Source: an uncultured Candidatus Saccharibacteria bacterium (GTDB lineage Bacteria > Patescibacteriota > Saccharimonadia > Saccharimonadales > CAZVRA01). From it: a stretch of 64,000 bases of DNA. The notes under the pieces are model-generated. The model worked only from the letters and a program-made list of their open reading frames with translations. It searched no databases and had not been told where the DNA came from. Below are positions 4,156 to 20,526 of this stretch, in pieces. The first letter of the stretch is position 1; every line of letters starts with the position of its first letter. The stretch is from positions 91,569 to 155,568 of the forward strand of contig CAZVRA010000001.1 of NCBI GenBank assembly GCA_964630055.1. The letters run 5' to 3'. A program made the translations under genes and the position numbers.

Positions 4156-6336
4156 GTGAATAGCATTAGAAACAAAGCGTTTTTTAAGGATAAAAAGTTT
4201 TTGGTAGCCGGCATAACAGTTTTGGTTTTTGCTGTTTTGGGAGCATTTTTGCTTCAACGCAGCATGGCTAGCAGTGGGCTAACCCCTACGGCTTCCTGTG
4301 GCGCCCGAGTAGCAAACTACAACTATCAGCGCCCATTTGGCGCCGATGCTGCCTGGAACGTTCCAGCCTGTAATTTAAAAAAATGGTCACGATCGGACGA
4401 CATGGTTAATCGGGTTTGGAATTTTTCTCAGCGTTGGCGATATGATTTTGCCAGACCAAACGGCGACTGGTCTATGGAGTTTGGCCTGGTAGACGACAAA
4501 TATAAAACCGATAGCTTTGCGTTGCCCATTTACAACGCCAAAGACGCTACTTATAAGGCAAAGGCCAAGCTTAAGACTGGCTATGGAGCCGTTGCCAATT
4601 TAGGGTCAGATATTTGGAGTAATAGCGAGGACGATTGGGGCGCAAGCATACCTTTTAACCAGAGTTGGCGGCCATCTACTGGTAGTGATGGACAAATGAC
4701 CATAATTGACCCCGATACTGGCAAAATGTGGGACCTATGGGCAACGGCCTGGGATGGCTTCCAGAACCCTAAAAATACTGTAGCTTCTTGTTTGACCGAT
4801 CTAAACAATAGTCAGCCGCAGAGCTTGTTTTTCCCTAATGGCCGCGGTGGATACGATACAGCCAGTGATTTGTGTGTTGGTTCGGCCATACTTTCTAGGG
4901 GCCCAGACGGCAAGCCAGCCGATTATAGGACATACACGGGTAATTCCCCGGGAGCGACTGGCCTGGGTCTACAGCATTATGCGGGTATTATTACCCCCGA
5001 AGAAGTGGCCGCTGGCGAGGTAAGGCACGCCACCAGATTAACCGTTGCCAATACTATTTTTGCTCCAGATTGCGCATCCATGGGCGTGACCTCAATTGAT
5101 GATATGCGAATTGGCAGCGAATGCGGTACAGCGCTAGCGCCTGCCGGTATGTTCGAAAAAACATCGGCTAACGATTCGCCTGGCGAATTTGACTCACGTT
5201 TTGGTAATTTTGGTAATAATGCCAACGAAAGAAGGCGCAACTCGGTTCCGGAGGGGCTAAGAATAGCGCTAAATATTACCGATCAGGAAATAGAAAACTG
5301 GTTAACCAGCCGAGGCTACACCGGTCGCAAGCGCGAAACGGCCAGAGTGATAGCTGTGGGCATGCGGGATTACGGCCTGATTGTGTCCGACAGCTCGGGC
5401 ATGGCCGGCATACAGGCTATGGGCGCCGAAAACCCCGAGACAGCCAAAAAATGGCGTGATCTTGGTTTGGATGGCGATGGCAAAAACTTGCTGTTTGGCT
5501 TGTTCCAGAAAGAAAAATTGTATGCTGTAGAACCAGCCGTTAACACCTGTAAAAATGGAGTTAAAAGTCGTTTTTACTGCCATGCTAGTGCCACGGGTTA
5601 CTCGGAAGATATAGCTCGCCAAGCAGCCGTAAACGACCCTTCGGCTCCGGTGCAGCCAGCGAATACCCCGCCAACTGTTGCTATAGCCGCACCTACCGAC
5701 GGCCAGACCGTTGTTAACACGGCTACAGTTATAACTGCCAAGACCAGCGACGACGGTTACGTGGCCAAAGTTCAGTACATGAATGGTCCTAACACCGTGG
5801 CGACATCGACCGCTGCGCCAGATTATGCAGCCAGCCTTAGTAGCTTGCCAGTTGGTTCGTACAAGCTGACGGCCGTAGCCACCGATAACAAGGGTGCTAC
5901 AGCCACATCGGCGCCAGTTAACGTAACCATTAAGGCGGCAGCTACTCAGACGCCAGTACCGGTTAATAACCAGACGACCCAAAAACCTAGTGCCAATGAA
6001 TTATCGTCTAAACCAGCAGTGGTTACTACTTCGGTCACGCCACCAAGTGTCCCGGCTAATCTTGGCGGTTACCTAAACTTCGACATCACCCGTTGGCACT
6101 ATGCGATTGTGCCAAATTGGTCCAAATCTAGTTCGACAAATGTTAAAACTTATGTCCTAAAACGAGACGGCATAGAGATTTATCGGGGCCCCAATACTAG
6201 TCATAGTGACTTCAACATTGCTGACGGCAAAACATACACTTACGAGGTGAGCGCCTTTGACGGCACTTACTATTCGACACCAAAAACCTTCAAGGCCACA
6301 ACTAAGTGCTACTGGTTCTACTGCACGCTACAATAG
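4156..6336 (+). CDS. secreted/surface protein with C-terminal Ig-like and FN3-like modules (central domain unrecognised)
   Basis: GTG start after AAAGGGTAGG. N-terminal hydrophobic anchor FLVAGITVLVFAVLGAFLL. Ig-like segment PPTVAIAAPTDGQTV...VNVTI. FN3-like segment ending YTYEVSAFDG. Confidence 0.6.
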   Translation: MNSIRNKAFFKDKKFLVAGITVLVFAVLGAFLLQRSMASSGLTPTASCGARVANYNYQRPFGADAAWNVPACNLKKWSRSDDMVNRVWNFSQRWRYDFARPNGDWSMEFGLVDDKYKTDSFALPIYNAKDATYKAKAKLKTGYGAVANLGSDIWSNSEDDWGASIPFNQSWRPSTGSDGQMTIIDPDTGKMWDLWATAWDGFQNPKNTVASCLTDLNNSQPQSLFFPNGRGGYDTASDLCVGSAILSRGPDGKPADYRTYTGNSPGATGLGLQHYAGIITPEEVAAGEVRHATRLTVANTIFAPDCASMGVTSIDDMRIGSECGTALAPAGMFEKTSANDSPGEFDSRFGNFGNNANERRRNSVPEGLRIALNITDQEIENWLTSRGYTGRKRETARVIAVGMRDYGLIVSDSSGMAGIQAMGAENPETAKKWRDLGLDGDGKNLLFGLFQKEKLYAVEPAVNTCKNGVKSRFYCHASATGYSEDIARQAAVNDPSAPVQPANTPPTVAIAAPTDGQTVVNTATVITAKTSDDGYVAKVQYMNGPNTVATSTAAPDYAASLSSLPVGSYKLTAVATDNKGATATSAPVNVTIKAAATQTPVPVNNQTTQKPSANELSSKPAVVTTSVTPPSVPANLGGYLNFDITRWHYAIVPNWSKSSSTNVKTYVLKRDGIEIYRGPNTSHSDFNIADGKTYTYEVSAFDGTYYSTPKTFKATTKCYWFYCTLQ

Positions 6337-6366
6337 CGCTTGGTACAAAATTACACACCTTAGTTT

Positions 6367-6393
6367 TTAGCGCTCGTTGCAGTCGAGTGCTAA
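6367..6393. promoter_or_regulatory. CIRCE operator (HrcA site) in the hrcA promoter
   Basis: TTAGCGCTC-N9-GAGTGCTAA versus consensus TTAGCACTC-N9-GAGTGCTAA (1 mismatch). Followed by TGcTATAAT (-10 at 6401-6406) and ATG at 6413. Confidence 0.85.
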
Positions 6394-6412
6394 AAAATGC
6401 TATAATGCAAGC

Positions 6413-7123
6413 ATGACAAGTCGACAGCAAAAAGTGCTTCAATCGATTATTGAACAATATGCCGAAGTTGCTAGCCCGGTTGGTTCTAATTTGCTGGCCA
6501 AAGTTTTTGGCGTTTCATCGGCGACTATTCGCAGCGAAATGGCCGAATTAGAGCAGGCTGGCTATATAATGCAGCCTCACACTAGTGCTGGCAGAATTCC
6601 AACCGACAAGGGCTATCGGTTTTATGTTAATCATTTGGGCGACACGCAACATGCCGAAACGGCCAACGAGCGGCGCGGCGAAAAGGCTTTGACCAGCCGT
6701 ACGGCTGGCGGAGGTGTGCCGGATCGTCTGATACGCACAACAGTCGATACTTTGGTAGAACTGACTCACAACTTAGGCTTGGCTACTATTGGCGACCAAC
6801 TTTATATGAGCGGGCTGTCTAACTTATTTGGCCAGCCAGAGTTTATGAATACTGAGCAGGTCAAAGAGGTGGCGCGCTTGCTGGACAACCTAGAGCCATG
6901 GCTTTACGAAGCAGCCCCCAACGAACCGCTCAGTGTTTACATTGGCCACGAAAATCCCATCGGTCGTAGTGCTGGCTGCTCGTTAATTGTTAGTCGCTTT
7001 CGCAGTCCGTTTTCCGACACAAGTTACATTGGAGTACTTGGTCCGACCAGACAAAGCTACCGAGATGTTATGAACTTGGTGCGCCGCGCCGGCCAAAACC
7101 TAGAGGAGATTTTATATGTCTAG
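6413..7123 (+). CDS. hrcA: heat-inducible transcription repressor HrcA (short form, 236 aa)
   Basis: N-terminal winged-helix MTSRQQKVLQSIIEQYAEVASPVGSNLLAKVFGVSSATIRSEMAELEQAGYIMQPHTSAGRIPTDKGYRFYV. Sits before grpE-dnaK and behind a CIRCE. ATG 6413 chosen over TTG 6377, which lies inside the CIRCE. Confidence 0.85.
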   Translation: MTSRQQKVLQSIIEQYAEVASPVGSNLLAKVFGVSSATIRSEMAELEQAGYIMQPHTSAGRIPTDKGYRFYVNHLGDTQHAETANERRGEKALTSRTAGGGVPDRLIRTTVDTLVELTHNLGLATIGDQLYMSGLSNLFGQPEFMNTEQVKEVARLLDNLEPWLYEAAPNEPLSVYIGHENPIGRSAGCSLIVSRFRSPFSDTSYIGVLGPTRQSYRDVMNLVRRAGQNLEEILYV

Positions 7124-7415
7124 AACCATAGTTGATCAGCGTTTCTTTGAGCAGCCCGGATTTACCGAACTGTTTGATGCATATTCCAATATGTTTGAGC
7201 GTAAGGATGACGGCCAATACAAAATACCACCCGACGAGGCCTTGGCTGGCGTAATGAAGGTTCGTCATGAACTCGACATGCAGTATTTACTAGCCACAAG
7301 AGAAATGAACCAGATAGAGCGTATTGCCTGTAAGTATGCCATAGAAATGTCTATTATGGCCGACGAGCTAGAATATGAAAACGAAAACGAGGATTTGGCT
7401 GGGTACATAAAATGA
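7116..7415 (+). CDS. hypothetical small acidic protein (99 aa) inside the hrcA-grpE operon
   Basis: Start overlaps the hrcA stop by 8 nt and the stop overlaps the grpE start (ATGA at 7412-7415). No family recognised. Confidence 0.6.
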   Translation: MSRTIVDQRFFEQPGFTELFDAYSNMFERKDDGQYKIPPDEALAGVMKVRHELDMQYLLATREMNQIERIACKYAIEMSIMADELEYENENEDLAGYIK

Positions 7416-7951
7416 ACAGATCACACAAGAACAAGCAAAATCAGCCAGATTCCAGCTTGCCAGACCACGAGGAAGTTACAGTTTTGCAACAACAAATTGG
7501 CGAGCTAACCGAGGCCTTGCAGCGCGAAAGAGCCGACGTTAGCAATATTCGCCGCCGACACGCCGAAGATATGGCCAACCTGCGGACCAGCGCTGTGGCC
7601 GATGTTGTTGAGCAGCTACTACCAGTTATAGACAATTTTGAGCGATCGCTTAAATACGTACCAGAAGATTTGGCCGATAACCAGTATGTTAAGGGTGTTG
7701 GCGGCTTAATTAAGCAGTTTCAGAGCACGCTAAGCGCTATGGGCGTGCAAAAAATTCCAACGGTGGGGCATGGTTTTGACCCCAATCTTCATGAGGCGGT
7801 TAGCATGGAAGAAGGCCAAGGCAAGCACGAAGTAGTTACCGAGGAGCTCCAATCTGGTTATAGTATGGGCGACAAAATTATTCGACATGCCATGGTGCGA
7901 GTTGGTCATAGTGATCTCGCGCCATCCGATGCTACTACCCCAGCCAAATAA
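7412..7951 (+). CDS. grpE: nucleotide exchange factor GrpE
   Basis: 179 aa. N-terminal coiled coil and C-terminal FDPNLHEAV...VRVG pattern typical of GrpE. Position between hrcA and dnaK. Confidence 0.85.
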   Translation: MNRSHKNKQNQPDSSLPDHEEVTVLQQQIGELTEALQRERADVSNIRRRHAEDMANLRTSAVADVVEQLLPVIDNFERSLKYVPEDLADNQYVKGVGGLIKQFQSTLSAMGVQKIPTVGHGFDPNLHEAVSMEEGQGKHEVVTEELQSGYSMGDKIIRHAMVRVGHSDLAPSDATTPAK

Positions 7952-7967
7952 CTTATAAAATTGTAAG

Positions 7968-7994
7968 TTAGCACTCTTGACATGTGAGTGCCAA
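7968..7994. promoter_or_regulatory. CIRCE operator overlapping the dnaK promoter
   Basis: TTAGCACTC-N9-GAGTGCCAA (1 mismatch). TTGACA (7977-7982) sits in the spacer and TATACT at 8001-8006. A degenerate second copy CTGGCAGTA-N9-GAGTGCTAA lies at 8005-8031. Confidence 0.85.
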
Positions 7995-8102
7995 CTAATA
8001 TATACTGGCAGTATTGCATGTTGAGTGCTAAAATTATCGTAGTAAATATTAGCTAAAGTAAAGCAAACTATTAACAATAAGTTATAAAAAAGGGGAAATA
8101 AT

Positions 8103-10046
8103 ATGGGTAAAATTATCGGAATCGATCTTGGTACAACCAACAGCGCTATGGCGGTTATGCAGTCGGGCAAGGCCGACATTATTGCCAATAGCGAGGGCAA
8201 CCGTACCACGCCTAGCGTGGTGGCCATCAACAAAAATAAGGAGCGCTTGGTGGGTCAAGTTGCTCGCCGCCAACAGGTTACTAACCCAAAAAACACAATT
8301 TACGAGGTCAAGCGTTTAATTGGCCGCCGCTGGGAAGACAAAGAGGTTCAGCGTGACCTCAAGCTGCTAGGCTACGAAATTGTCAAAAGCGGCAGTGGCG
8401 TTAAGGTTAAGATGGGCGGCAAAGAATACAGCCCCGAAGAAATCAGCGCCATGATTTTGGGCAAGCTAAAGGCCGACGCCGAAGCATTTTTGGGCCAAAA
8501 AGTAGACGAGGCAGTCATTACCGTGCCGGCTTATTTTGACGACGCTCAGCGCCAGGCTACCAAAGATGCCGGCAAAATTGCTGGCCTCGAGGTCAAGCGC
8601 ATAATTAACGAGCCAACAGCGGCCGCACTGGCCTACGGCTTAGACAAAGGCAGCAAAAAAGACGAAAAAATCGTTGTCTTTGACCTGGGTGGTGGTACCT
8701 TCGATGTGTCCATTCTGGAGCTAGGTGATGGTGTCTTTGAGGTAAAAAGCACCAATGGCGACACGCATTTGGGTGGTGCCGACTTTGACCGTGTCCTGGT
8801 TAACTACTTCGCCGACGAATTTAAGCGCGAGCAGGGCATAGACATCCGCGAAGACAACGCCGCTATGCAGCGCCTACGTGATGAGGCCGAAAAGGCCAAA
8901 ATTGAGCTTAGCTCTACTAACGAAATCGACATCAATTTGCCATTCTTAACGGCCGACGCCGACGGGCCAAAACACTTTGAGCTTAAGTTGACTCGTGCCA
9001 AGCTAGAAAGTTTGGTTGGCGACCTGGTGGACAAAACCGCTGTGCCATGCGAAAAGGCGCTTAAAGATGCCGGACTAAAAGCCAGCGACATAGATGCAGT
9101 TGTTTTGGTGGGTGGTATGACCCGCATGCCAGCCGTGCAGGCCAAGGTTAAAGAGATATTTGGCAAAGACCCAATGCAGGGCGTTAACCCCGACGAAGTA
9201 GTGGCCATTGGCGCCGCTATTCAGGGTGGCGTGTTGCAGGGCGACGTCAAGGACGTACTGCTGCTAGACGTCACCCCACTGAGCCTAGGTATAGAAACTT
9301 TGGGCGGTGTGGCAACCAAGCTAATCGAGCGCAACACGACTATTCCGACCAGTAAATCCGAGGTCTTTAGTACAGCCGCCGACAACCAGAACCAGGTAGA
9401 AATTCATGTTGTCCAGGGCGAGCGCGAATTTGTGACAGACAACAAGTCGCTTGGTCGGTTTGTGCTAGACGGCATTCCTCCAGCTCCGCGCGGTGTGCCT
9501 CAGATCGAAGTTACCTTTAACATCGACGCCAACGGTATTTTAAACGTTACCGCCAAGGACAAGGGCACTAGCAAGGAACAAAGCATTACTATCCAAAATA
9601 GTGGCAACCTAGACAAGTCCGAGGTCGAGAAAATGGCCAAAGAAGCCGAGACTCATGCCGAAGAAGACAAGAAAAAACGCGAGGCAATCGATGCTCGCAA
9701 CCAGCTAGACAGCGCTATTTACCAAGCCGAAAAAATGAAGTCCGACAACAAAGATAAGCTGGACGAAGCCGACGTTAAAAAGTTGGACGAAGCCGTCGAA
9801 ACTGCCAAAAAGGCAGCTGGCGACGAAGCCGCCGACAAAGATACGTTGGAGGCCGCAGCCAAGGCGCTAACAGAGGCAATTATGCCAATTGGTGCCAAAA
9901 TGTACGAAGCTGCCAGTAAAGCCGAAGAAGCCGCCGAGGCCGCCAAAGAAAAAGACCAAAAATCCGACAGCGACTCAGGCTCAAAGGCTAAAAGTAAAGA
10001 CAAGGACGAGCCAGTCGAAGGCGAAGTGGTAGACGAATCCAAATAA
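8103..10046 (+). CDS. dnaK: chaperone DnaK (Hsp70)
   Basis: [48 protein letters not shown] upstream. Confidence 0.98.
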
Positions 10047-10175: not shown

Positions 10176-13070
10176 ATGCTGACTAAGGGCTTTTATAGGA
10201 TTAGGGTAGATAAGCTAGCAAAAATAACTCTGGCTGGTGTTTTTTTGTTTGGCGTTGTACTAGGTTCTTTGAGCAATTTGGTTTGGACGGCCGCCAGGCC
10301 AAAACTCGCAAAGGCCCAGTCAGCCCAGCCGACCCTGCCACGGCTTCAGTTAACAGAACTAGGTACTCACCCCCAAGCGGCGGCTCAGCCAACTACCGAT
10401 GGCAAAAGCATTAACAGCCTCAAGGTTTTTGACGGCAAGCTTTTTGCTGGTTATGGCGACTACCAAAACAACACTGGGCCAATTATCATAAACCCTTTTA
10501 ACCTAAGTACTAATACTTTTGAGGGCCAGGCCCTAAGCGTGCCCAGCGAAGCGATTGGCAACTGGACGGTTATAAACGGCAGCCTTTATGCAACTACAAT
10601 TGATCCTAATTGTTCCAAAACCTGCCCTGCCGGCTATGCCAAATACACGCCGGGCGGGAGTTGGTCCATGCAAACACCAATCAATGCCGAGCACGTCTTT
10701 GCTATGGCTAGCTTAAACGGTAGCGATTTGTGGCTTTTTGGATCTGCCGGTGGCTACACTTCTACCGCTTGGCGGAGTACCGATGGTGGCAGCACTTGGG
10801 CGGTGGTTCGCACCTATGCCAACGAATCATCGAGTAATCTAGAGCGTTATTACTGGGGCATTGCTACCGGCGGCAAAATGTATATGCAATCAAACTTGTA
10901 CGGATTTCAAAACCCAGTCGAGGCGTTTGACGGCACAAATTGGACCTCTAACACATCGGTGCCAGCATTGTGCGATACAGGCACTGCCGGCAGGGGGCCA
11001 TCGATAATTGTTCACCAGTCTAAAATAATTTGCGCTGGTAGCTCATGGAACCAAGCCCAGGCAATGGTGTATGATGGCAGCACGGCAACACAGCTTGATA
11101 TCAACAGTTCTGTTTGCGGCAATTCTGTTTATATGCTGCAAGAAGCTGATGGCTATGTTTATGCACTCTGTCGGTCCTGGTATGACCAGAATTACTCAGA
11201 CAGAGCTTCTAAGATTATGGATTCGCGCATAATCCGCAGCAAAGATTTAAATAACTGGCAAACAATAACCACCTTTGACAGTAATTTAATGAACAGTAAT
11301 TTTACCATCGAATCATTCGCCATAGATGGCTCGACGCTCTATGTGGGCGATAATAATTCCAAAATATATAAAACTACCTTTGACGCTGGCGCCGACACTA
11401 CACCGCCCACGGGCAGCGTAACTACCTCGGCCAAAAATGGCCTGGCCGAAGGATCGTTTACAATGAGTGTTGACGCCAACGATGCCAAAGGTGATGTTTA
11501 CGTTGAGTATTACATTAATGGGGTTGTTCAGCCGATGCCATATAGTTATCGGCCTACCAACGGTGGAAACAACACTGCTACTAACAAAGACTATTATTCG
11601 CCATTTACTTTTGACATAACTAACCGTTATTTGCAAAACGATTGGCAGTACCCACCCGACAAAAACCTGGTATTAACCGCCAAAATTACCGATGGCAGTG
11701 GCAATACCACCACTACTCAGCCGGTCACGGTTCACTTTGCCAAGCCAGACATCAATGTGAGTTCGCTAACTACAAGTGGTATAAATTTAGGCGCGCCTAT
11801 GGCGACCGACCAAGCCGGCAACATTTGGACTCCAGACATCAATCCCTTTGTTAGCGAAGAGTTACTTGGTTTTATAAAAGTCGACCCGGCAACCGGCGTT
11901 ACTACAAAATATCCGTTTGCTTCTTCGCACCCCAGCTATGCATATGTTTATGATGGTGGTTTTACAGTAGACAAAACAGGCCATATTTGGTTTGTGGATT
12001 GTCGAAGTAGCCAGCTGCACAAGTTTAACCCCCAAACAAAAGCCGAAGTTGTTAGCGACCTGCCGTTTAGTGTTTGTACCGATTCAGGTACCCAAATGGT
12101 GCTTGGAAGCGGCTCCGACATGCTGATACTAAAGCGAGGTAGCGACCAAATTGTTCGGGTCAATATAGAAACCGGTGCTTTGTCGCGCCAAGATATACCC
12201 AGCAATTATTTAGTTACAACATTGGAGCCAGACAATAGCGGCCAGTTTATGGCGGCTTATGCTACCGGCCAACCAGGCAGTGGCAGTAGCGTAGATGTCG
12301 GCTTAGCCAATATTAATGCTGCTGGGGTGTTTTCGTCCTTTTACGAAGAACCTTACGATGCTAATTCTATTTTGGGTAATGTGTGGTCTATCATTAAAGA
12401 CCAAGCTGGCAATATTTGGATAAGCAGCGATACCGAGCGCCAGACCGATGGACCGCTAATATCTGTGCTGACCGTTTCTGGCCAAAAAAAGACCTTTGGC
12501 ACAGTGCTGGGTGGGAGTTATGGTCATTCGGCTAGGTTGCATTTTACGCCTTCGGGCATGTTGGTCGGGCAAACTGCCGACGGTGCCGTAGTAATAATTG
12601 ACCCAGGCACAGGTAATATAAAGAAGCATTATGTTTTAAGTACGGTGCTGCCGGGTGGAGAAGTCATTGCTTACCCTGGAATGTTTTCCTCATTGGTCAT
12701 AGACAAACAGGGGGTCATGTGGGTTAATGATATTATTGGACAGCGGCTAGTTAAGATTTCGGTATTGTCGGCTGCCACCGGCTCGGTCAATGCCCTGGTC
12801 GACGGCGCGGCCAGTAGTAACGGCTCGCTACTTGCCACCACTGGGGCTTATCTTTTGGCAACTCCTCTGGTGGCGATTGTTTTGGGCACCATAGCCTACA
12901 CATTTTTTGACTACCGGCGCTGCAAGCGAGGCCTGTCCGGCAGCCCCGGCTCGGAGGCCTATACCTACAGGCACCACTTGCAGGTGGTTAGTTTTCCGCT
13001 GTTTAGATACAGGCTGGTGTTGGCTTTTGACAAAATTGTCAAAACTAACGGCAAAATATCGCGCTACTAG
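10176..13070 (+). CDS. very large surface protein (964 aa) with BNR/Asp-box, Ig-like and beta-propeller-type repeats and an LAxTG-like C-terminal signal
   Basis: N-terminal anchor ITLAGVFLFGVVLGS. Asp-box STDGGSTW. Repeated DQAGNIW / DKTGHIW / DKQGVMW blades. C-terminus LLATTG + hydrophobic AYLLATPLVAIVLGTIAYTFF + DYRRCKR. Confidence 0.7.
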   Translation: MLTKGFYRIRVDKLAKITLAGVFLFGVVLGSLSNLVWTAARPKLAKAQSAQPTLPRLQLTELGTHPQAAAQPTTDGKSINSLKVFDGKLFAGYGDYQNNTGPIIINPFNLSTNTFEGQALSVPSEAIGNWTVINGSLYATTIDPNCSKTCPAGYAKYTPGGSWSMQTPINAEHVFAMASLNGSDLWLFGSAGGYTSTAWRSTDGGSTWAVVRTYANESSSNLERYYWGIATGGKMYMQSNLYGFQNPVEAFDGTNWTSNTSVPALCDTGTAGRGPSIIVHQSKIICAGSSWNQAQAMVYDGSTATQLDINSSVCGNSVYMLQEADGYVYALCRSWYDQNYSDRASKIMDSRIIRSKDLNNWQTITTFDSNLMNSNFTIESFAIDGSTLYVGDNNSKIYKTTFDAGADTTPPTGSVTTSAKNGLAEGSFTMSVDANDAKGDVYVEYYINGVVQPMPYSYRPTNGGNNTATNKDYYSPFTFDITNRYLQNDWQYPPDKNLVLTAKITDGSGNTTTTQPVTVHFAKPDINVSSLTTSGINLGAPMATDQAGNIWTPDINPFVSEELLGFIKVDPATGVTTKYPFASSHPSYAYVYDGGFTVDKTGHIWFVDCRSSQLHKFNPQTKAEVVSDLPFSVCTDSGTQMVLGSGSDMLILKRGSDQIVRVNIETGALSRQDIPSNYLVTTLEPDNSGQFMAAYATGQPGSGSSVDVGLANINAAGVFSSFYEEPYDANSILGNVWSIIKDQAGNIWISSDTERQTDGPLISVLTVSGQKKTFGTVLGGSYGHSARLHFTPSGMLVGQTADGAVVIIDPGTGNIKKHYVLSTVLPGGEVIAYPGMFSSLVIDKQGVMWVNDIIGQRLVKISVLSAATGSVNALVDGAASSNGSLLATTGAYLLATPLVAIVLGTIAYTFFDYRRCKRGLSGSPGSEAYTYRHHLQVVSFPLFRYRLVLAFDKIVKTNGKISRY

Positions 13071-13111
13071 TTTTCCACAGGTTATTGTTTGCAGACTTGA
13101 CAAGCATAAGC

Positions 13112-13122
13112 GGGGGGGGGGG
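13112..13122. repeat. homopolymeric G11 tract in the intergenic region
   Basis: Eleven consecutive G, counted directly. Flanked by TTGACA (13097-13102) and TAACAT (13123-13128). Confidence 0.95.
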
Positions 13123-13169
13123 TAACATCGAAGAGTACATTAACAGTATGTGTAGGTATCTTAGGGCAG

Positions 13170-13205
13170 AGCAGTTTTGGTTAACTGCTATGCTTTGGTT
13201 TTTTC
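13170..13205 (+). terminator. hairpin plus T-rich tail (candidate terminator of the 10176..13070 gene, or an attenuator)
   Basis: AGCAGTT-ttggtt-AACTGCT, then atgcTTTGGTTTTTT. Confidence 0.5.
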
Positions 13206-13317
13206 CGTAAGTGGCGCCCATTTTGGTCTTATCAGCTTTGGCAAAACATTGTGGTATTTACAACATACAAATAATTTAAGCTTTTATTAAGTAAACAAGG
13301 AAGCAAGGAAACAAAAA

Positions 13318-14931
13318 ATGACAACCAAAAGACCCCAAGCCAAAACAATCTCGGTCCTAGCAGGCGCCATCCGCCGCACTGGCTTTTTGGCCATAGCAAC
13401 CGTCCTATTCGCCTCCGGCCTGGCCGTCCTGGCTCCCGCCAAAAAAGCCAGCGCCGCCGCGTGTGTAAAGAATTATGGTTCTTACGGTGGAAGCTCTGGA
13501 TTCACGCCTTTTCAATTAGTTGGCGGAATTGGCTCATCACTAGACTCTAGCGTTCAATCTTATGATACTGAATTTACGCCAAAAGGAACGGGCTATGCCT
13601 ATAGCATTAGGGCAAGTATTGTTAAATCCGATTGTACTGATCCTGGTCAATCTGTAGATATAAGTATCTACAAGGGGGGCGATGGTACAATTAAAGCTTA
13701 TGCGTATGATGGAAATCGCACAACTCCTTATGCTGCGACTACTGACTATAAGAATATAAATTCGGCTTTTACGCCAAGCCCAAGCGGCAGCACCGGTCTT
13801 AGTTTAAGCTCATCTGCACTTATTAATTCAGATAATAATACAGCAGTCAGATTCCGACTGGATATATCAACTAGCGGCTGGCTTAAGGTTTCGTACTTTG
13901 TAGGCAGTGGAGCAGAGCAAGTCATAGGTGAGTTTGCGATTCCAGCTAGTGCAGTATCGTTCCTTGGTCATGACTATGGTGACTTCAGTTTAGACCTTCA
14001 ACGCAAGGGTGCGACTACCTGTTCTCAGGTAACTGGTAGCGCAAATATGGACGTTAGGGTATTGAGTGGGGGAACCGCCGCAGTGCCCTTAACTATATAC
14101 ACAGCCGACGCCCAGTCTAATATGTATACGTGCTATGCTATGGTTAAATCATCCTTTAACGCTACTTCTAAGGTTGCCACGCTGGCATACGATGTCGCCG
14201 GAGCTAGCGTGCCAAAAGGGGTAAAGAATGATCTTAATGTGCTGTCAGATCCTGGATTACCTTTTGTCTATAGTGCCTCGCTGGAGCTTGGTACCAGTGG
14301 GGATAGCCCGTGGCCGAAACAAGAATTTATTAGCTCAACCTCTGCCGACCAGCAACTCTACTTTTTTGCCCAGAACTATAATGGCAGCAAGACTATGGCG
14401 AAGGGGGTTATTTATCCAATCGCTGGTGGTATTTTTGACATGAGCTCTAGCGATGTTGACCTAAAAGACGTAAAAATGGATGTTGACGGCATGGCATTTA
14501 AGTCCTTGGCGCACAACCTGGGAGCCTTAACAAAAGACAAGACATTTACCTTGTTTGTACCCTATAGGGACGGCGATAAATCGGTTGGGATATGCCCTGG
14601 CGCCAGCACATTAGATACGGTAACCGATAAATGCGACAAGGTTTACTACTTGGCCGACGGTATGACCAAGACCAGTGCAGACAGCAGTACAATTCCTAAA
14701 GGCGTCAATGTTAAAGCCAATAAAGTTAAAATTGGCAATACAAACTTCTGGCGCATAGATGGTCTAAGCGGTACCGGCGGCTTTAGCTCACCAGCCGTGG
14801 CCGCAGCGCCAGCTACTGGTGCGATTCAGCTGATTACTTCTAACCCAATTGTTGCTGGTTTGGCCACTTTGGCGGTTGTAGGGGCCTTGGCGGTTCTGCG
14901 CCGCAAGTATGTGCCGGCAGTTAACAAATAG
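13318..14931 (+). CDS. surface protein (537 aa) with sortase-type C-terminal sorting signal
   Basis: SD AAGGAA 7 nt upstream. N-terminal signal/anchor FLAIATVLFASGLAVLAPAKKASA. C-terminus AAPATG...VAGLATLAVVGALAVL-RRKYVPAVNK (xPxTG + TM + basic tail). Confidence 0.7.
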   Translation: MTTKRPQAKTISVLAGAIRRTGFLAIATVLFASGLAVLAPAKKASAAACVKNYGSYGGSSGFTPFQLVGGIGSSLDSSVQSYDTEFTPKGTGYAYSIRASIVKSDCTDPGQSVDISIYKGGDGTIKAYAYDGNRTTPYAATTDYKNINSAFTPSPSGSTGLSLSSSALINSDNNTAVRFRLDISTSGWLKVSYFVGSGAEQVIGEFAIPASAVSFLGHDYGDFSLDLQRKGATTCSQVTGSANMDVRVLSGGTAAVPLTIYTADAQSNMYTCYAMVKSSFNATSKVATLAYDVAGASVPKGVKNDLNVLSDPGLPFVYSASLELGTSGDSPWPKQEFISSTSADQQLYFFAQNYNGSKTMAKGVIYPIAGGIFDMSSSDVDLKDVKMDVDGMAFKSLAHNLGALTKDKTFTLFVPYRDGDKSVGICPGASTLDTVTDKCDKVYYLADGMTKTSADSSTIPKGVNVKANKVKIGNTNFWRIDGLSGTGGFSSPAVAAAPATGAIQLITSNPIVAGLATLAVVGALAVLRRKYVPAVNK

Positions 14932-15049
14932 TTAGTAGTTTGTGCCGGTTACCAGCTGGCAACCGGCGAGGCAAATTGTTGCCCAAAAATAAAATTCTAA
15001 AACTTTAAAAACCTAAAATTAACACCCAAATTTAAAATCAAAAAATAAA

Positions 15050-16186
15050 ATGCAACCAAGTCGAATATATTTAGATGATGCTGTTTTTGCGTCGCGCCTC
15101 AGGCGGGAATTCCCCCGGCGCCAGTTTGGCGCTGGCGGAGCGCCATACTCTGGCGCCGCCAAGCCGCGGTCCCAACGGTCCTTTAGCTCCGAGCCTTTTG
15201 TTGGCCAGGGTGTTCTGCTGTCGCGACCTTTGCCCGGGACGCCGCCAAAAACTGCGCCTAACCCTTCGCCCAAAGCTGTGGCAGTGGCGTCGGCCCAGAT
15301 GGTAGACGGCATAGTAATGCGTACTCCTTCGGTTGCCCAAACTGCGACCGTCCAACCTGCAACTGCCCAAGGAACAACGAAAAATGTGTTGCAGCCAGGG
15401 CGGACCAATCCGGTTGTTGGTAGGCCACAAATACCCAGTCCGCCGGAATTATCTGTCATGGCCAAGCAATTTGCGCCCCGGGTTGCGCCCCAAAACTCCA
15501 AAACACCGGCCGCATCCACTCCAAAGCAAAAAGGTTGGCGCAAAGTACTGGGACACGCCTTAACCGGCTTTAGTTTACTGGTGCTTATGGCCGGCAGCTA
15601 CGTAGTAACAAGCAGCTATTTTACCAACAAGCACGTGGCGGCTCAGGTTCAGCAGTCATCTAGCCAGCAGGAAGATGCTAACAACAGCTTGCCCTCCGAA
15701 GAACCACCTAGCGAAGACATAGGCAAATATGCTGTTGCGGCCGACATGCCCAAGTTGGTGTCTATCCAAAAGCTGGGGGTCAAGGCGCGAGTTAGGCGCA
15801 TGGGCGTCGACAAAACAGGGGCCATTCAGGCGCCGCGCAATATTTACGACGCCGGCTGGTACGATGGCAGCGCCAAGCCTGGCGAGCCAGGCACAGTTTT
15901 CTTGGATGCTCATGTGTCGGGGCCGACAAAACCTGGGGTTTTTCACGACATCAAAAAACTGGCCGCTGGCGATACCATCACCATAGAAATGGGCGATGGC
16001 AAAACCCACACATATAGCGTGGTCAGCCAAAAGTCCTACCCCAGAGATCAGGTTAACATGCAGGAAGCGCTGGTGTCGGCTAAACCTGGCAAGCGAGCCT
16101 TAAACATGATGACATGTAGTGGCAAGTTCGATTCTAAGACTCAAAGTTATTCCGAGCGCCTAGTTGTCTTTGCGGTAGAGCAATAA
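15050..16186 (+). CDS. sortase (class E/F-like) with ~165-aa Pro-rich N-terminal extension
   Basis: C-terminal domain has His (FLDAHVSG), Cys (LNMMTCSG) and Arg (SERLVVFA). Single TM LTGFSLLVLMAGSYVV. N-terminal part is P/A/Q-rich low complexity. Confidence 0.8.
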   Translation: MQPSRIYLDDAVFASRLRREFPRRQFGAGGAPYSGAAKPRSQRSFSSEPFVGQGVLLSRPLPGTPPKTAPNPSPKAVAVASAQMVDGIVMRTPSVAQTATVQPATAQGTTKNVLQPGRTNPVVGRPQIPSPPELSVMAKQFAPRVAPQNSKTPAASTPKQKGWRKVLGHALTGFSLLVLMAGSYVVTSSYFTNKHVAAQVQQSSSQQEDANNSLPSEEPPSEDIGKYAVAADMPKLVSIQKLGVKARVRRMGVDKTGAIQAPRNIYDAGWYDGSAKPGEPGTVFLDAHVSGPTKPGVFHDIKKLAAGDTITIEMGDGKTHTYSVVSQKSYPRDQVNMQEALVSAKPGKRALNMMTCSGKFDSKTQSYSERLVVFAVEQ

Positions 16187-16201
16187 GCGTGCTATAATTA
16201 C

Positions 16202-16350
16202 AGCCGTTATCAAACCGGTCCAATGAATAAAGCGGCTCAGGGAGCAAGCTATGTTACGTAAACAGCTTGCACCAACCTGAGAAGTTTGGACTTTAAGCCT
16301 AATCACCGCATGGCTGGCATTAAAATGCTGCCTGGGTAAAAAAGACGGCT
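16202..16350 (+). promoter_or_regulatory. structured 5' leader / candidate riboswitch upstream of the transglycosylase lipoprotein gene
   Basis: Starts just after TGcTATAAT (-10 at 16193-16198). Closing stem AGCCGT (16202-07)/ACGGCT (16345-50). Nested stems CTCAGG (16236-41)/CCTGAG (16276-81) and GCAAGCT (16244-50)/AGCTTGC (16264-70). Hairpin GGC..GCAT-taaa-ATGC..GCC (16312-16332). Confidence 0.4.
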
Positions 16351-16437
16351 TACAATCTGATAACCCAACTAATATTAATTGGCCATTTGGCATGTTTTTG
16401 TTGTTTGGCCCTATTTATACAGAAGGGACTGTTTGCT

Positions 16438-17025
16438 ATGTCTATTGAGTCTATGGAACAAGCACCAGCAACAATACAAAATAACGAAATTGCCACTGCG
16501 ACCAATTGGCGACGCGCCGTAGCCGTGGCTGGCCTAGCCACTTCGGCACTTTTGAGCGCTGGTTGCGATGCTAGGGACGTGCCGTTTTTTCGCGAAGCCT
16601 GCGAGCAACAAGGCCAATCGGCGGATACTTGTTACAACCAGTTTAACCAATTAATCCGCCGGGCAAATGCCGTAAATGGCGGGCAGGTTGTTGACCCGGA
16701 TGCTTTTTTTGAGGCCGGTGGCTTAACGCCCGGCGAGGCCAGCGCCGCCAGACAAATTATGACCCCCGAATCTGGCATGTGCGCCTGGAAGGTCCAAGGC
16801 AAGTTTGGCGCTTGTCCACCCGCACCGCCCGCGCCGTCCAGAGTACCGAAGAGTGGCGGTTATGGTTTGTGCCAGTCAACTCCGCCCCAAAAAATGGCTT
16901 CCGCCGGTCCAGACTGGGTCACTAACCCTTACACCCAACTAAAATGGTGCGATTCGTATGTAAAAGGACGCTACGGTGGTTGGTTGCAAGCGTTGGGTTA
17001 TCGCCGTGCCCACGGAAATTTCTAA
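16438..17025 (+). CDS. putative lipoprotein, lytic transglycosylase-like (SLT/IsaA-type C-terminal domain)
   Basis: RRAVAVAGLATSALLSAG|C lipobox-like signal. C-terminal PESG...GGYGLCQSTPPQKM...DWVTNPYTQLKWCDSYVKGRYGGW resembles transglycosylase-like domains. ATG 16438 (AAGGGA upstream) preferred over TTG 16387. Confidence 0.5.
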   Translation: MSIESMEQAPATIQNNEIATATNWRRAVAVAGLATSALLSAGCDARDVPFFREACEQQGQSADTCYNQFNQLIRRANAVNGGQVVDPDAFFEAGGLTPGEASAARQIMTPESGMCAWKVQGKFGACPPAPPAPSRVPKSGGYGLCQSTPPQKMASAGPDWVTNPYTQLKWCDSYVKGRYGGWLQALGYRRAHGNF

Positions 17026-17068
17026 CCTGGTTTGATGCTCGGCGGCTACCTGCGGTATACTAATTTAT

Positions 17069-17794
17069 ATGCCAAAAGATATACCGCGGAAAATGCTAAA
17101 GAAAATACCGACAGTAAAAAGAAAAGTAAAAACCGCAAAATCGTTGAGCGCCAGCATAAAGCTTGGGCCGACTGCTAAAACCGTTAGCAAAACCAGTTGG
17201 CTGGACCGATGGTACCCCAGAATACTGCTAGTTTTGGCGGTTATTGGTTTTGTGGCTTCGTTTGTGCTGACGCTAGAGAAGATTGCCATTATCAAGAACC
17301 CGCAACACCATTTAAGCTGTAGCATTAATCCGCTTTTGTCTTGCGGACCGATCATTACGTCGCCGCAGGCTAGTGCCTTTGGATTCCCCAACCCCATTAT
17401 CGGCTTGTTTGCCTTTAGTGTGCTAATTTGTGTGGCCATTACCATGATGGCTGGCGCAGTCGTGGACAAAACCAAACAGTGGTACTGGCGGCTATTTGTG
17501 GCTGGGCATTTGTTTGGCCTGGGCTTTGTGCTTTGGCTAATTCACGAAGCTGTTTTTGAGCTAAAGGCGCTGTGCATTTACTGCATGGTGGCCTGGGCGG
17601 TGACTTTTGCCCTAAATTGGTACGGCTATTTGTGGCTGAGCAGCACCGGTCGGCTGGTAGTTACAGGGGTGGGGCGACAGCTGCGAGACTGGGGTTTGCG
17701 CAATCACTTAGGTGTTCTGTTTTTGAGCTATCTGGCCGTTTTTGCAGTTATTTTGCTGCAATTTAGGGATTACTTCGAAAGTTTTTTGCACTAG
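17069..17794 (+). CDS. vitamin K epoxide reductase (VKOR) family membrane oxidoreductase
   Basis: Loop cysteines HHLSCSINPLLSCGP and CxxC in a TM helix (LCIYCMVAW). TATACT 17056-17061 lies 7 nt before the ATG. Confidence 0.8.
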   Translation: MPKDIPRKMLKKIPTVKRKVKTAKSLSASIKLGPTAKTVSKTSWLDRWYPRILLVLAVIGFVASFVLTLEKIAIIKNPQHHLSCSINPLLSCGPIITSPQASAFGFPNPIIGLFAFSVLICVAITMMAGAVVDKTKQWYWRLFVAGHLFGLGFVLWLIHEAVFELKALCIYCMVAWAVTFALNWYGYLWLSSTGRLVVTGVGRQLRDWGLRNHLGVLFLSYLAVFAVILLQFRDYFESFLH

Positions 17795-17817
17795 CACTCT
17801 CGACCTCAAAGTGCTAA
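17791..17817. promoter_or_regulatory. CIRCE-like inverted repeat overlapping the VKOR stop codon
   Basis: CTAGCACTC-N9-AAGTGCTAA (8/9 + 8/9 to the CIRCE consensus, correct 9-nt spacer). Confidence 0.6.
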
Positions 17818-17885
17818 AATGTACTAAGTGGCTAACAAAAGCTGCTTGTAAATTATTCTACAATGTGCTACAATTTTGCCACAGC

Positions 17886-17920
17886 ACCTCGCTTGGCATT
17901 ATTGTCTCGCGAGGTTTTTT
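17886..17920 (+). terminator. hairpin plus T6 (weak terminator or attenuator) between CIRCE-like site and NYN gene
   Basis: ACCTCGC-16 nt loop-GCGAGGT followed by TTTTT. The large loop lowers confidence. Confidence 0.4.
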
Positions 17921-17957
17921 GATATAAAAATAATTTCTTAATTTCTGGAGATATTTA

Positions 17958-18557
17958 GTGAGAAGAGTTGTTTTAGTGGATGGCGAAAATCTCAACTATG
18001 CAATACGCAAGATGATAGGATCAAGCAGTAAGCCGGCTAGCAGAGCTGTACTTATAGGCTATAACTATCGTGGTCTTATTGATAATGTTCTAGAAAATGA
18101 GCAATATGATTCTGTATTATTTTTTGGGGCTAAGTTGCGCCGCTATAAACACAGCGAAGAGTTATCGAAGAAATGCGAAAAGGCTATCCACCTGCAATCC
18201 ATATTAGTAAACCAGCTAAATAAACAAGGTATCCAATTTATAAAAGCTGGATATTTGCGAGCCCGAGAAACCAAATCCTGCAAGCAGTGTGGCGACAGCA
18301 GATGGGCTCTAATAGAGAAGGGTGTAGATGTCGCATTAGCTGTGCGGATAGTAGAAGAGGCAAAAAAAGACACAGAAATAGTGGTTATTAGTGCCGATAC
18401 CGATGTATTGCCGGCTATAAAAACAGCTGCCGTTAAGGGTGCCAAAGTTACGGTGGTAAGCTACGAAGACTGTGTACCCCTGGCATTGGTGAAGAATGCG
18501 TCGTTATCTAGAGTCATAACTCGTAATATGGTAAAAAAGGCGGCCAAACATGAGTAA
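17958..18557 (+). CDS. NYN-domain (LabA/DUF88-like) putative RNase with inserted zinc-ribbon-like CxxC
   Basis: [15 protein letters not shown] at the N-terminus and [14 protein letters not shown]...KVTVVSY, typical of NYN/Lab[10 protein letters not shown] insert. GTG start with GGAG 9 nt upstream. Stop overlaps the dnaJ start. Confidence 0.7.
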
Positions 18558-19674
18558 ACGCGATTATTACGAAGTGCTTGGCGTGGGCAAAAAAGCCAGC
18601 GACGACGAGATCAAAAAGGCTTTTAGGCGAGCTGCAGTTAAGCATCACCCAGACAAAGGTGGCGACGAAGTAAAATTTAAAGAGATCAACGAAGCCTACG
18701 AAGTTTTAAAGGACGAAAAAAAGCGCCAGCGCTACGATCAGTTTGGTCATGCCGGTGTCGGGACCAGCGCTGCCAGCGATGGGCCGACTGGCAATCCTTT
18801 TGGTGGCGCTGGCGCGGGCGGCCAGAACGTGCACTTTGACTTTGGTGATTTGGGGTTGGGCGACATTTTTGGTAGCTTTTTTGGTGGCGCGGGCGGCATG
18901 GGTGGTTCTGGCCGCTCCGGCGGCCGCGCGGCGCGCGGCCGCGACGTCGAAACAGCCATAGAGCTAACTTTTGAGGAAGCAATTTTTGGCATAGAGCGCG
19001 AAATAAACTTAAACCTGGCCGACACCTGCGAACACTGCAAAGGCACGACTGCCGAGCCAGGCTCCGAGATCAAAACTTGCGACACCTGCAAGGGCAGCGG
19101 CCAGGTGCACCGCGTAATGCAAACGGTTTTTGGCAACATTCAGCAAGCTTCGGTCTGCCCAACCTGCAAAGGTCGCGGCAAAATTCCCGAAAAAGTTTGT
19201 ACGGTTTGCCACGGCAAGGGTGTACAACCCAAAAACCAGAAGATTCGTCTTAAAATTCCGGCTGGCATAGACGATGGCGCAACCATTCGCTTGCGGGAAC
19301 GTGGCGAGGCTGTAGCCGATGGCCCCAAGGGCGACCTGTATGTGCATGTCAGGGTCAAGGCCCACAAACAGTTTACTCGCGAAGGCGACCTAATACTCAG
19401 CAGTCAGCATATTGGCATGGTCGATGCAGCTCTGGGCACCGAAATAGATGTGGCCACTGTCGATGGCAATGTGCGCATGAAGGTGCCGGCTGGTACGCAG
19501 AGCGGCACAGATTTTAAGCTATCGGGCCATGGAGTTCCACACATGCGTGGTGATCGCCGTGGCGCTCATATTGTGACCATAATTGTCGACACACCGACCA
19601 AATTGTCGCGTCGCCAGCAAGAATTGCTGCAAGAATTTGGGGCTGCTTCAGGACGCCGCGGGTTCTTCAGGTAG
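18550..19674 (+). CDS. dnaJ: co-chaperone DnaJ
   Basis: J domain DYYEVLGV...HHPDKGG, G/F region, four CxxCxGxG zinc motifs ([32 protein letters not shown]). Confidence 0.97.
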
Positions 19675-20526
19675 CTGATCGGTCGAAGCGGCAGCCACTT
19701 TTGCATTTTGTTCATTTTGTTGCTTTTGGTTGAATGCGTTGACCACATTAGTCATCCAGTCGGGTATTCTAACGCCTAGTTCTTCGAATTTGGGCAAATG
19801 CTCCGACAAAAATTTTAAGTCTTCGAATGTTAGTTTCTCGATTTTACCAGCATATTTAACGGCGTACATGTTGGTATCCGCTTGCGCGACTACTTTATTA
19901 ATATTATCGCCTTTTTTGGCAAACTCGTAGCCGATGGCTAGCGTTGGACCAAATTTTTCAAATTCGGTGCCAGCAATAGCTTCGGCCAGAATTTTGTTGA
20001 GGCGCTTAATTTCGTTCTGTGCATTTTCGTCTGGAGTAGACAGTGCTCGGTTTTCGGTGCCCTTTTCTTGATTTCTAAAAACGGTTGCAAGTGCAAATTC
20101 GTCTCCACCCAATCGGGCCGAATTATTGGACGGATCGGCGCTACGCGGTTGACCATGCGTCGCCACTTCGTCGGTACGACGGTAACTGTCTTTGAGCGCC
20201 TGACCGACAATGCCAAGTAGCTCATCGCCTTTGGGGTGACCAAGTGTGTCATTTACTTCTTTAAAACCGTTCATATCCATAATGAACACAGTGGCAATGT
20301 CGTTTTCGCCTAAAGATTCTACCGTGGTTTTTAATTGTTCGGTCCAGGATTCTTGATTTAATAGGCCTGTTTTGGAATCAAACCGTAGCTTTTTATCTAG
20401 GTGTTCAACGGCACCAAGCACAAAATCCATACCGGCAACTGGCGCTCTGTTCATTATCTCTTGCATCATATTGCTTCTATGTGCAGTTGGTTGTTCTTGC
20501 CCTGGTTGCCCTTGACTTTCGGCCAT
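19648..20526 (-). CDS. GGDEF-domain diguanylate cyclase (no recognisable sensor domain)
   Basis: [25 protein letters not shown] and intact [15 protein letters not shown]. 3' end overlaps the dnaJ 3' end by 27 nt (convergent). Confidence 0.85.

Follow-up and report, generated by a model that had tools for sequence, protein, structure and literature searches.

The stretch analyzed here, called the window throughout, comprises 64,000 nucleotides (nt) of contig CAZVRA010000001.1 from an uncultured Candidatus Saccharibacteria bacterium. The element of interest is a repeat resembling the controlling inverted repeat of chaperone expression (CIRCE), the operator of the heat-shock repressor HrcA, which lies in front of a gene for a putative NYN-domain ribonuclease coupled to dnaJ (the pair NYN-dnaJ). 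The features at this locus are as follows (aa, amino acids; bp, base pairs).

17069..17794, plus strand: VKOR-family gene (PF07884, E = 2.7e-37), last gene of a block of ~7.9 kb
17791..17817, plus strand: CIRCE-like HrcA operator, site 3, CTAGCACTC (17791-17799)-N9-AAGTGCTAA (17809-17817)
17812..17820, plus strand: P1, candidate extended -10 element TGCTAAAAT, read from the sequence, overlapping the right CIRCE arm; also found in the related locus L019
17846..17874, plus strand: P2, predicted promoter of the hairpin RNA; TTGTAA, 17 nt, TGcTACAAT (9/12 match, with TG), predicted start near A17881
17881..17920, plus strand: conserved NYN-associated hairpin RNA of ~40 nt; 5' ACAGC, 7-bp lower stem, UU/UC internal loop, 4-bp upper stem, tetraloop, U6
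17920..17928, plus strand: weak extended -10-like TGATATAAA after the hairpin, doubtful, its final T missing; relatives with NYN only have TGnTAnAAT here for a leaderless NYN mRNA
17947..17951, plus strand: Shine-Dalgarno sequence GGAGA for the NYN GTG
17958..18557, plus strand: gene for the NYN-domain (LabA/MARF1-like) putative ribonuclease, 199 aa, GTG start, PF01936
18550..18557, plus strand: 8-nt overlap of the NYN stop and the dnaJ ATG (CATGAGTAA at 18549-18557), giving translational coupling
18550..19674, plus strand: dnaJ, with all three DnaJ domains (J domain, CXXCXGXG zinc centre, C-terminal domain)

The window was searched with the consensus TTAGCACTC-N9-GAGTGCTAA and an exact 9-nt spacer (PMC545781). 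Site 3 matched at 16 of 18 positions, that is with two mismatches and the correct spacer, and the VKOR stop codon TAG (17792-17794) lies inside its left arm. At three or fewer mismatches the window contained three matches, at 6367, 7968 and 17791; dinucleotide shuffles of the window gave an expectation of 0.01 matches and none of 100 shuffles reached three. The two mismatches of site 3 fall at positions which also vary among the clear sites of relatives, and the invariant core TAGC.CTC...AGTGC.AA is retained. That the repeat is a chance match of no function has the two mismatches in its favor and nothing else, and is contradicted both by the shuffle statistics and by the conservation presented below; its probability is negligible.

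The other two matches belong to the upstream half of the ancestral operon. Features in this part of the window, together with two genes of the ~7.9-kb block, were:

6367..10046, plus strand: upstream half of the ancestral operon (CIRCE site 1, hrcA, an open reading frame (ORF) of 99 aa, grpE, CIRCE site 2, dnaK)
6367-6393: CIRCE site 1, preceding hrcA
6413-7123, plus strand: hrcA, with PF01628 and PF03444 matches, encoding a short 236-aa form
7412-7951, plus strand: grpE, between hrcA and dnaK
7968-7994: CIRCE site 2, preceding dnaK
8103-10046, plus strand: dnaK
15050-16186, plus strand: sortase gene
16387-17025, plus strand: gene for a protein with an aggregation-promoting-factor C-terminal domain

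The HrcA system is present, since the window contains hrcA along with two canonical CIRCE promoters. The original prediction, made from the sequence alone, had placed CIRCE sites at 6367-6393 and 7968-7994, a 16/18 repeat across the VKOR stop, a hairpin followed by T6 at 17886-17920 and a GTG-initiated NYN gene running into the dnaJ ATG, and each of these was found as described.

At sites 1 and 2 and at the sites upstream of NYN-dnaJ in the related loci L003, L004, L010 and L018, a -35 hexamer lies within the CIRCE spacer (TTGCAG, TTGACA, TTGCAC, TGGACT, TTGTAT and TAGACA) and a TATAAT-like hexamer follows 17-18 nt after it, so that HrcA on the arms would cover the promoter. In site 3 the spacer contains a -35-like TCGACC (17800-17805), followed after 16 nt by a poor TACTAA (17822-17827). 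The regulated promoter which HrcA could occlude in the window is most plausibly TGCTAAAAT at 17812-17820, a candidate read from the sequence which lies across the right arm.

The hrcA message itself is seemingly leaderless: the TTGCAG of the spacer is followed after 18 nt by TGcTATAAT (hexamer at 6401-6406), and the ATG at 6413 lies only 6 nt past this -10. For dnaK, the TTGACA in the spacer is paired with TATACT at 8001-8006, after which a degenerate second CIRCE was observed (CTGGCAGTA-N9-GAGTGCTAA, 8005-8031, four mismatches); in many relatives two CIRCE sites, 46-49 nt apart, precede dnaK. The 99-aa ORF (7116-7415) overlaps both hrcA and grpE and had no Pfam or NCBIfam match, and small unannotated ORFs were also present within the hrcA-grpE-dnaK cluster of the related locus L081.

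Conservation of the operator and history of the operon

Related loci (623 kb) were scanned for CIRCE and then classed by synteny. The operator was found upstream of NYN in 6/6 loci in which NYN-dnaJ lies at least 1.9 kb from dnaK or in which dnaK is outside the 2-4 kb in view (the window, L003, L004, L010, L018 and L019), in 0/18 loci with dnaK within ~1.6 kb, even at five mismatches, and in none of ~58 loci where NYN has no adjacent dnaJ. The original prediction had made its case depend on the repeat being conserved in relatives which keep NYN-dnaJ, and CIRCE was indeed kept in every relative with NYN-dnaJ far from dnaK. The six orthologous sites carry 0-2 mismatches (0-1 in the five relatives) and are 167-186 nt from NYN, apart from L019 where the distance is 769 nt and a LysE-like gene intervenes. 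Loci L028 and L044 have a CIRCE directly before dnaJ instead, and the operator therefore tracks dnaJ. L083, where NYN-dnaJ follows cutA and no CIRCE was found, was considered as a counter-example and set aside, as its contig starts inside dnaK ~540 nt upstream and the operon is unsplit.

Over the 623 kb the distribution of mismatches was bimodal, with 36 sites at 0-3 mismatches, five at 4 and 10 at 5, and all 36 of the better sites adjoin hrcA, dnaK, NYN-dnaJ or dnaJ. In an alignment of the six orthologous sites with window sites 1 and 2, only TAGC.CTC, AGTGC.AA and the TA of the -10 hexamer were invariant and the flanks were unalignable. In a rough NYN tree the CIRCE-bearing loci were not monophyletic, which indicates that the operator was either repeatedly gained or retained over deep divergence; both imply selection.

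The genes upstream of the operator differ between loci. L003 and L018 have superoxide dismutase and MFS transporter genes in opposite orientation, L004 has a membrane protein gene, L010 an unannotated 171-aa ORF, and both L019 and the window have VKOR. The upstream gene of L004 also ends within its CIRCE. These arrangements bear on an action of the repeat at the level of RNA, either by folding into a 3'-terminal hairpin of the VKOR mRNA or through bound HrcA blocking read-through from the co-directional upstream genes. The overlap with the VKOR stop, a predicted fold of -7.3 kcal/mol, the plus-strand orientation of every gene from dnaK to dnaJ and the ending of the L004 upstream gene in CIRCE would all suit such a role. 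Against it, L003 and L018 keep CIRCE despite an upstream gene of opposite orientation, so the operator there can only serve the downstream unit and a role in the 3' untranslated region is excluded for those loci; furthermore the arms fit the DNA operator consensus rather than merely forming a stem, and the stem is weak, its innermost pair being broken by a G-to-A change. We therefore regard an RNA-level role as very improbable. The related suggestion in the original prediction, a stability element in the 3' untranslated region of the VKOR mRNA, thus fails for L003 and L018, and for the window, whose VKOR gene points the same way as NYN-dnaJ, it is a formal possibility.

L019 shares the VKOR-CIRCE junction with the window, and this locus is informative on whether site 3 is a decaying relic, that is whether the CIRCE promoter has lost its function here and NYN-dnaJ is expressed from P2 alone, perhaps with some contribution from the weak TGATATAAA. 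Operator and promoter are indeed weaker at site 3 than at any of its orthologues, the promoter P2 is good, and a terminator-like hairpin lies in between. However, all invariant core positions are kept, and L019 has the same G-to-A variant and the same TGCTAAAAT even though its DnaJ is 68% identical and its VKOR only 36% identical to those of the window, which argues for selection. Accepted CIRCE sites elsewhere also carry two to three mismatches (PMC545781, Table 8). On this evidence decay is unlikely, if still worth keeping in mind.

The NYN homologues form a small family of 72 proteins which, in reference genomes, are nearly all from Candidatus Saccharibacteria/Saccharimonadia, with a few from other lineages of the candidate phyla radiation (CPR). 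When the heat-shock proteins of the window were compared by tblastn with 80 NYN-homologue loci, the order hrcA-grpE-dnaK-NYN-dnaJ was found in many of them (L024, L026, L031, L044, L046, L052, L054, L072, L076 and others). It was also present in the closest relative found, L081 (57% NYN identity), which has the same 8-nt NYN/dnaJ overlap, and in L020 NYN is positioned after hrcA-grpE. Gene order in so many relatives therefore shows the nuclease to be an old member of the dnaK operon in Saccharibacteria. The original prediction had proposed that dnaJ was split from dnaK and coupled to an RNase gene; the split and the coupling held, while the implied recent joining of the nuclease to dnaJ did not. 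At the NYN/dnaJ junction, close relatives range from a 2-nt gap to an 11-nt overlap (the dnaJ start of L019 being a tblastn estimate).

In the window ~7.9 kb of other genes, all on the plus strand, separate dnaK from NYN-dnaJ. This block (10176-17794) encodes proteins of 964 and 537 aa without clear domains, the sortase, the aggregation-promoting-factor protein and VKOR, and it looks like a set of cell-surface genes inserted into the heat-shock operon. The distinctive feature of this genome is the ~7.9-kb insertion together with a dedicated operator.

The hairpin RNA and the NYN nuclease

Between the operator and NYN lies a hairpin (17886-17915, with the lower stem formed by 17886-17892 and 17909-17915) with a T6 run behind it that ends at 17920. 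The fold had a predicted free energy of -17.1 kcal/mol (z = -4.7), and a GC-rich stem (7 bp plus 4 bp) directly before U6 is what is expected of an intrinsic terminator; a simple terminator scan missed it because the loop rule of the scan disallows the internal loop. The hairpin recurs beside NYN genes throughout the phylum, with or without dnaJ or CIRCE. In an alignment of 42 sequences 92.4% of cells were paired, compared with 33-55% when the partner strand was slid, and double changes were found in 66 cells compared with 5-25 when slid. Compensatory changes were observed at 7/11 pairs (for example CCUCGC/GCGAGG, CCUCAC/GUGAGG, CCUUGAC/GUCAAGG and CCCCGC/GCGGGG), and the G-U pairs indicate that the plus-strand RNA is the selected molecule. 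In the consensus the lower stem (7 bp) and the upper stem (4 bp) are separated by a 2x2 internal loop of pyrimidines (UU/UC), and the upper stem is closed by a GNRA, UUCG or other loop.

A covariance model built on this structure matched the window once (17878-17923, 57 bits, E = 8e-16), with nothing else in the 64 kb, and gave 69 matches in 610 kb of loci, 68 of which adjoin a NYN gene. The exception is in L021 (578-1211), where a near-identical second promoter and hairpin RNA lie upstream of a Phd/YefM-like and RelE/ParE-like pair. As a rule the hairpin precedes NYN by 16-43 nt, but five loci (L029, L034, L035, L043 and L055) have it ~45 nt downstream of the gene, with a promoter of its own; the element is thus a separate unit of transcription and more than a leader. 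The L034 hairpin RNA gene (4615-4692) is followed by an ORF (5821-7113) with a reverse-transcriptase-like YVDD motif.

In 44/46 distinct loci a TTGACA-like hexamer, a 16-18 nt spacer and a (TG)TAnAnT element end exactly 11-12 nt before the first paired base, and from this fixed register the RNA is expected to begin with the A of the conserved ACAGC. The promoter often contains an inverted repeat, TTGAC-N6-GTCAA, across the -35 and spacer (L001, L002, L005, L006, L008, L013, L015-L017, L021, L081), the window version being TTGTA-N8-TACAA (17846-17863), which may be an operator for some regulator. A second, divergent hairpin of the same architecture was seen ~80-150 nt upstream of the first in L083 (861-906), L026 (~3850-3895), L024 (3785-3830) and L049 (3855-3904), for example CACCCCG-UGUUGGCGYAAGCCUCAG-CGGGG followed by U5, and in L083 it has its own promoter.

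Rfam 15 gave no match at E <= 1 for window positions 17000-19000 or for the hairpins of seven related loci, and we found no paper linking a NYN gene or a small RNA to Saccharibacteria. A metagenome scan with the exact 15-mer CAGCACCTCGCTTGG was dominated by chance matches in GC-rich coding DNA (118/120 returned loci), with L182 the only genuine one. Taken together, the covariation, the promoter register and the association with one gene family point to a conserved structured RNA unit with its own predicted promoter. The view that the hairpin is the VKOR terminator or part of its 3' untranslated region had to be given up, since it travels with NYN genes.

In relation to NYN expression, two arrangements were found. 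In 19 loci the hairpin is directly followed by an extended -10 (TGnTAnnnT), and NYN starts 5-8 nt beyond this element (7-8 nt in 17 of them); a promoter so near the start codon indicates a leaderless NYN mRNA, apart from the hairpin RNA. NYN is not followed by dnaJ in any of the 19, and no close NYN-dnaJ locus has this element. NYN-dnaJ loci have Shine-Dalgarno sequences and no promoter between hairpin and NYN, the U-tract of L004, L010 and L018 leading directly into the start codon. Expression of NYN-dnaJ therefore requires transcription across the hairpin, whose probable role is that of a partial terminator or attenuator.

It could also be that CIRCE governs only a short transcript which ends at the hairpin, a heat-inducible isoform of the hairpin RNA of ~95 nt, and that NYN-dnaJ does not respond to HrcA. 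The hairpin is a strong intrinsic-terminator-like element, it is kept in the predicted fold of 17826-17921, and elsewhere the hairpin RNA is independent (L034, downstream of NYN with its own promoter). This reading is difficult to reconcile with the absence of a post-hairpin promoter in L003, L004, L010, L018 and L019, where read-through is needed to make dnaJ, with a NYN start within a few nt of the U-tract in L004, L010 and L018, and with the correlation of CIRCE with the presence of dnaJ and not with the hairpin RNA. We consider it improbable.

Two further devices were examined and rejected. Neither an antiterminator nor any conserved small ORF was supported in the interval from the CIRCE promoter to P2, as CGAGG-like complements were unconserved and the terminator was kept in the fold; L003 and L010 do have ORFs crossing the hairpin, but their frames differ. 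The hairpin is also not a general RNA thermometer sequestering the Shine-Dalgarno sequence, because most loci have a separate Shine-Dalgarno sequence or are leaderless, and the GAGG of the 3' arm is usable as one only in L004, L010 and L018.

The NYN protein matched PF01936 with 37.5 bits (cut-off 24.2, E = 4.2e-9), and its N-terminus (11 residues) aligns with the starts of homologues. Among 26 homologues D124, D147 and D149 were invariant and D8 was at least 90% conserved; these aspartates would correspond to the catalytic aspartates of MARF1. An AlphaFold2 model had a mean confidence score (pLDDT) of 92.4, and the best Foldseek folds were LabA-like 2qip (E = 1e-6) followed by the MARF1 NYN domains 5yaa and 6fdl. 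A search of PDB sequences with the NYN family profile gave no significant match, and looking up the exact sequence of the window's NYN protein returned no record. MARF1 is described in the cited report as an experimentally demonstrated endoribonuclease (PMC6294520), and a CRISPR-associated NYN protein of B. fragilis is a Mn2+-dependent single-stranded ribonuclease (bioRxiv 10.1101/2024.04.08.588522).

A phage or defence origin of the nuclease was considered and not supported. PADLOC matched the protein to HEC-09 (E = 2e-13), a NYN candidate which gave no phage defence in its source paper, and besides the NYN-type models (HEC-09, NYN) returned just a weak AbiLii match. Viral contigs contained only four weak NYN relatives, and the neighbours of loci with NYN only were unrelated housekeeping genes. 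For this nuclease a stress-related function in core cell physiology seems likelier than one in defence or as a toxin.

A perfect 8-nt direct repeat, TAATTTCT twice at 17931-17946, was noted downstream of the hairpin and ahead of the Shine-Dalgarno sequence, within the NYN 5' untranslated region. At the other end of the pair, the last 27 nt of dnaJ (19648-19674) are shared with the 3' end of a GGDEF-domain gene that runs convergently on the minus strand (19648-20526), and no terminator was found between the two. Scans of the window for tRNA, tmRNA and tandem repeats found nothing.

Proposed control of NYN-dnaJ

We propose that site 3 is a functional HrcA operator which gives NYN-dnaJ its own heat-shock control after the ~7.9 kb of surface-protein, sortase and VKOR genes split it from hrcA-grpE-dnaK, and we put the probability of this at roughly 0.58. 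From the sequence features, their conservation, the link with synteny and the covariation of the RNA we infer a course of events in which HrcA binding, promoter use, partial read-through and nuclease activity are all predicted steps. At normal temperature HrcA on 17791-17817 would occlude the promoter embedded in the operator, most plausibly TGCTAAAAT. Upon proteotoxic stress HrcA would be released and transcription would begin near 17827, adding to the output of a constitutive P2 (17846-17874). Transcripts from P1 and P2 would both reach the hairpin and U6 (17881-17920), where a part would terminate as the ~40-nt RNA and the remainder would read through into NYN. NYN and dnaJ would then be translated as a coupled pair by means of the 8-nt overlap.

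Several observations weigh against this proposal. Site 3 is the most degenerate of the six orthologous sites, with two mismatches, TCGACC in its spacer and no good -10 at the canonical distance. The strong P2 lies beyond the reach of HrcA, and basal expression from it may dominate. The -17 kcal/mol hairpin and U6 stand between operator and NYN, and no antiterminator was predicted in the fold of 17826-17921, which keeps the hairpin intact. Lastly, the six supporting loci may represent only two or three independent lineages.

Control of NYN-dnaJ by HrcA is nonetheless supported comparatively, and the place of the NYN nuclease in the HrcA regulon, raised as a possibility in the original prediction, is the best reading of a CIRCE present in every locus with NYN-dnaJ remote from dnaK or dnaK out of view. 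How far this control would extend to NYN-dnaJ in this particular genome we can only infer, because the terminator-like hairpin intervenes and the promoter is the weakest of the set.

More tentatively, and with the odds somewhat against it, the ~40-nt hairpin RNA and NYN may form a dedicated RNA-ribonuclease module, in which the RNA would serve as partner, as inhibitor or decoy, or as autoregulatory target. Such a module would be conserved in Saccharibacteria and some other CPR and, in many lineages including that of the window, wired into the HrcA heat-shock operon and coupled to dnaJ. If this were true, regulated RNA cleavage would be tied to the chaperone response in ultra-small bacteria. 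The RNA motif itself is new and well supported by promoter, structure and covariation, and the NYN family and its RNA are strong candidates for a role in the stress RNA metabolism of Saccharibacteria.

To our knowledge HrcA/CIRCE regulons normally contain chaperone genes only, and almost no regulation has been studied experimentally in Saccharibacteria. Among the literature results listed, none joined Saccharibacteria with CIRCE/HrcA, or NYN with the dnaK operon or dnaJ, and a transcriptome paper on TM7x yielded no usable data for these genes. These reduced genomes place a PIN-like nuclease and a dedicated small structured RNA between dnaK and dnaJ, and where the operon was broken a new CIRCE stands before the nuclease-dnaJ pair. 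As an operator, site 3 adds one more ordinary example to the familiar HrcA/CIRCE class. The phylum-wide insertion of NYN between dnaK and dnaJ, its tight coupling to dnaJ and the hairpin RNA with its fixed-register promoter appear to be undescribed.

Comparison with known systems

Site 3 resembles the class I HrcA/CIRCE systems (B. subtilis hrcA-grpE-dnaK-dnaJ and groESL) in its 9-nt-spaced repeat matching at 16/18 positions, in the presence of hrcA in the window, in the chaperone genes and in the sigma-70-type promoter expected to be occluded by the repressor (PMC545781). It differs in that the Saccharibacteria -35 lies inside the CIRCE spacer, that the regulated unit starts with a small RNA gene and a NYN nuclease before dnaJ, and that HrcA is short (236 aa). 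In B. subtilis the operator is located downstream of the start site. A stand-alone dnaJ with its own CIRCE has precedent, for example dnaJ of Lactococcus lactis; as there, the dnaJ separated from dnaK has a dedicated operator, but here dnaJ is coupled to a nuclease and the operator lies ~170 nt upstream, past a second promoter and the hairpin RNA.

The nuclease resembles the PIN-like NYN/LabA/MARF1 ribonucleases (PF01936; 2qip, 5yaa, 6fdl) in its Pfam match, predicted fold and conserved acidic residues. Identity to these is 11-17%, however, and the family has an inserted beta-hairpin, which contains a CxxC in most members. LOTUS, RRM or CRISPR partners are absent, and the location in the dnaK operon and the dedicated neighbouring hairpin RNA are further differences.

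Type III toxin-antitoxin systems (ToxIN-like) are similar in having a structured RNA with a predicted promoter and terminator directly upstream of a ribonuclease gene, the two being paired at many genomic positions. The assignment was rejected, as the defining tandem repeats and toxin families are absent: the RNA is present as a single copy in the window (a few relatives have two separated hairpin copies, each with its own promoter) and the nuclease is a NYN protein and not ToxN, AbiQ, CptN or TenpN. The family is also nearly absent from viral contigs, and its residence in a core operon of these reduced genomes is suggestive of a housekeeping function.

Finally, the hairpin is similar to intrinsic terminators, attenuators and 5' stabiliser stem-loops in its GC-rich stem and U-tract and in its position 5 nt from the predicted 5' end. 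In contrast to these, sequence conservation throughout the phylum extends to the lower stem, the internal loop and the 5' tail, the promoter is in fixed register and the element is associated with one gene family, none of which is expected of a generic terminator.

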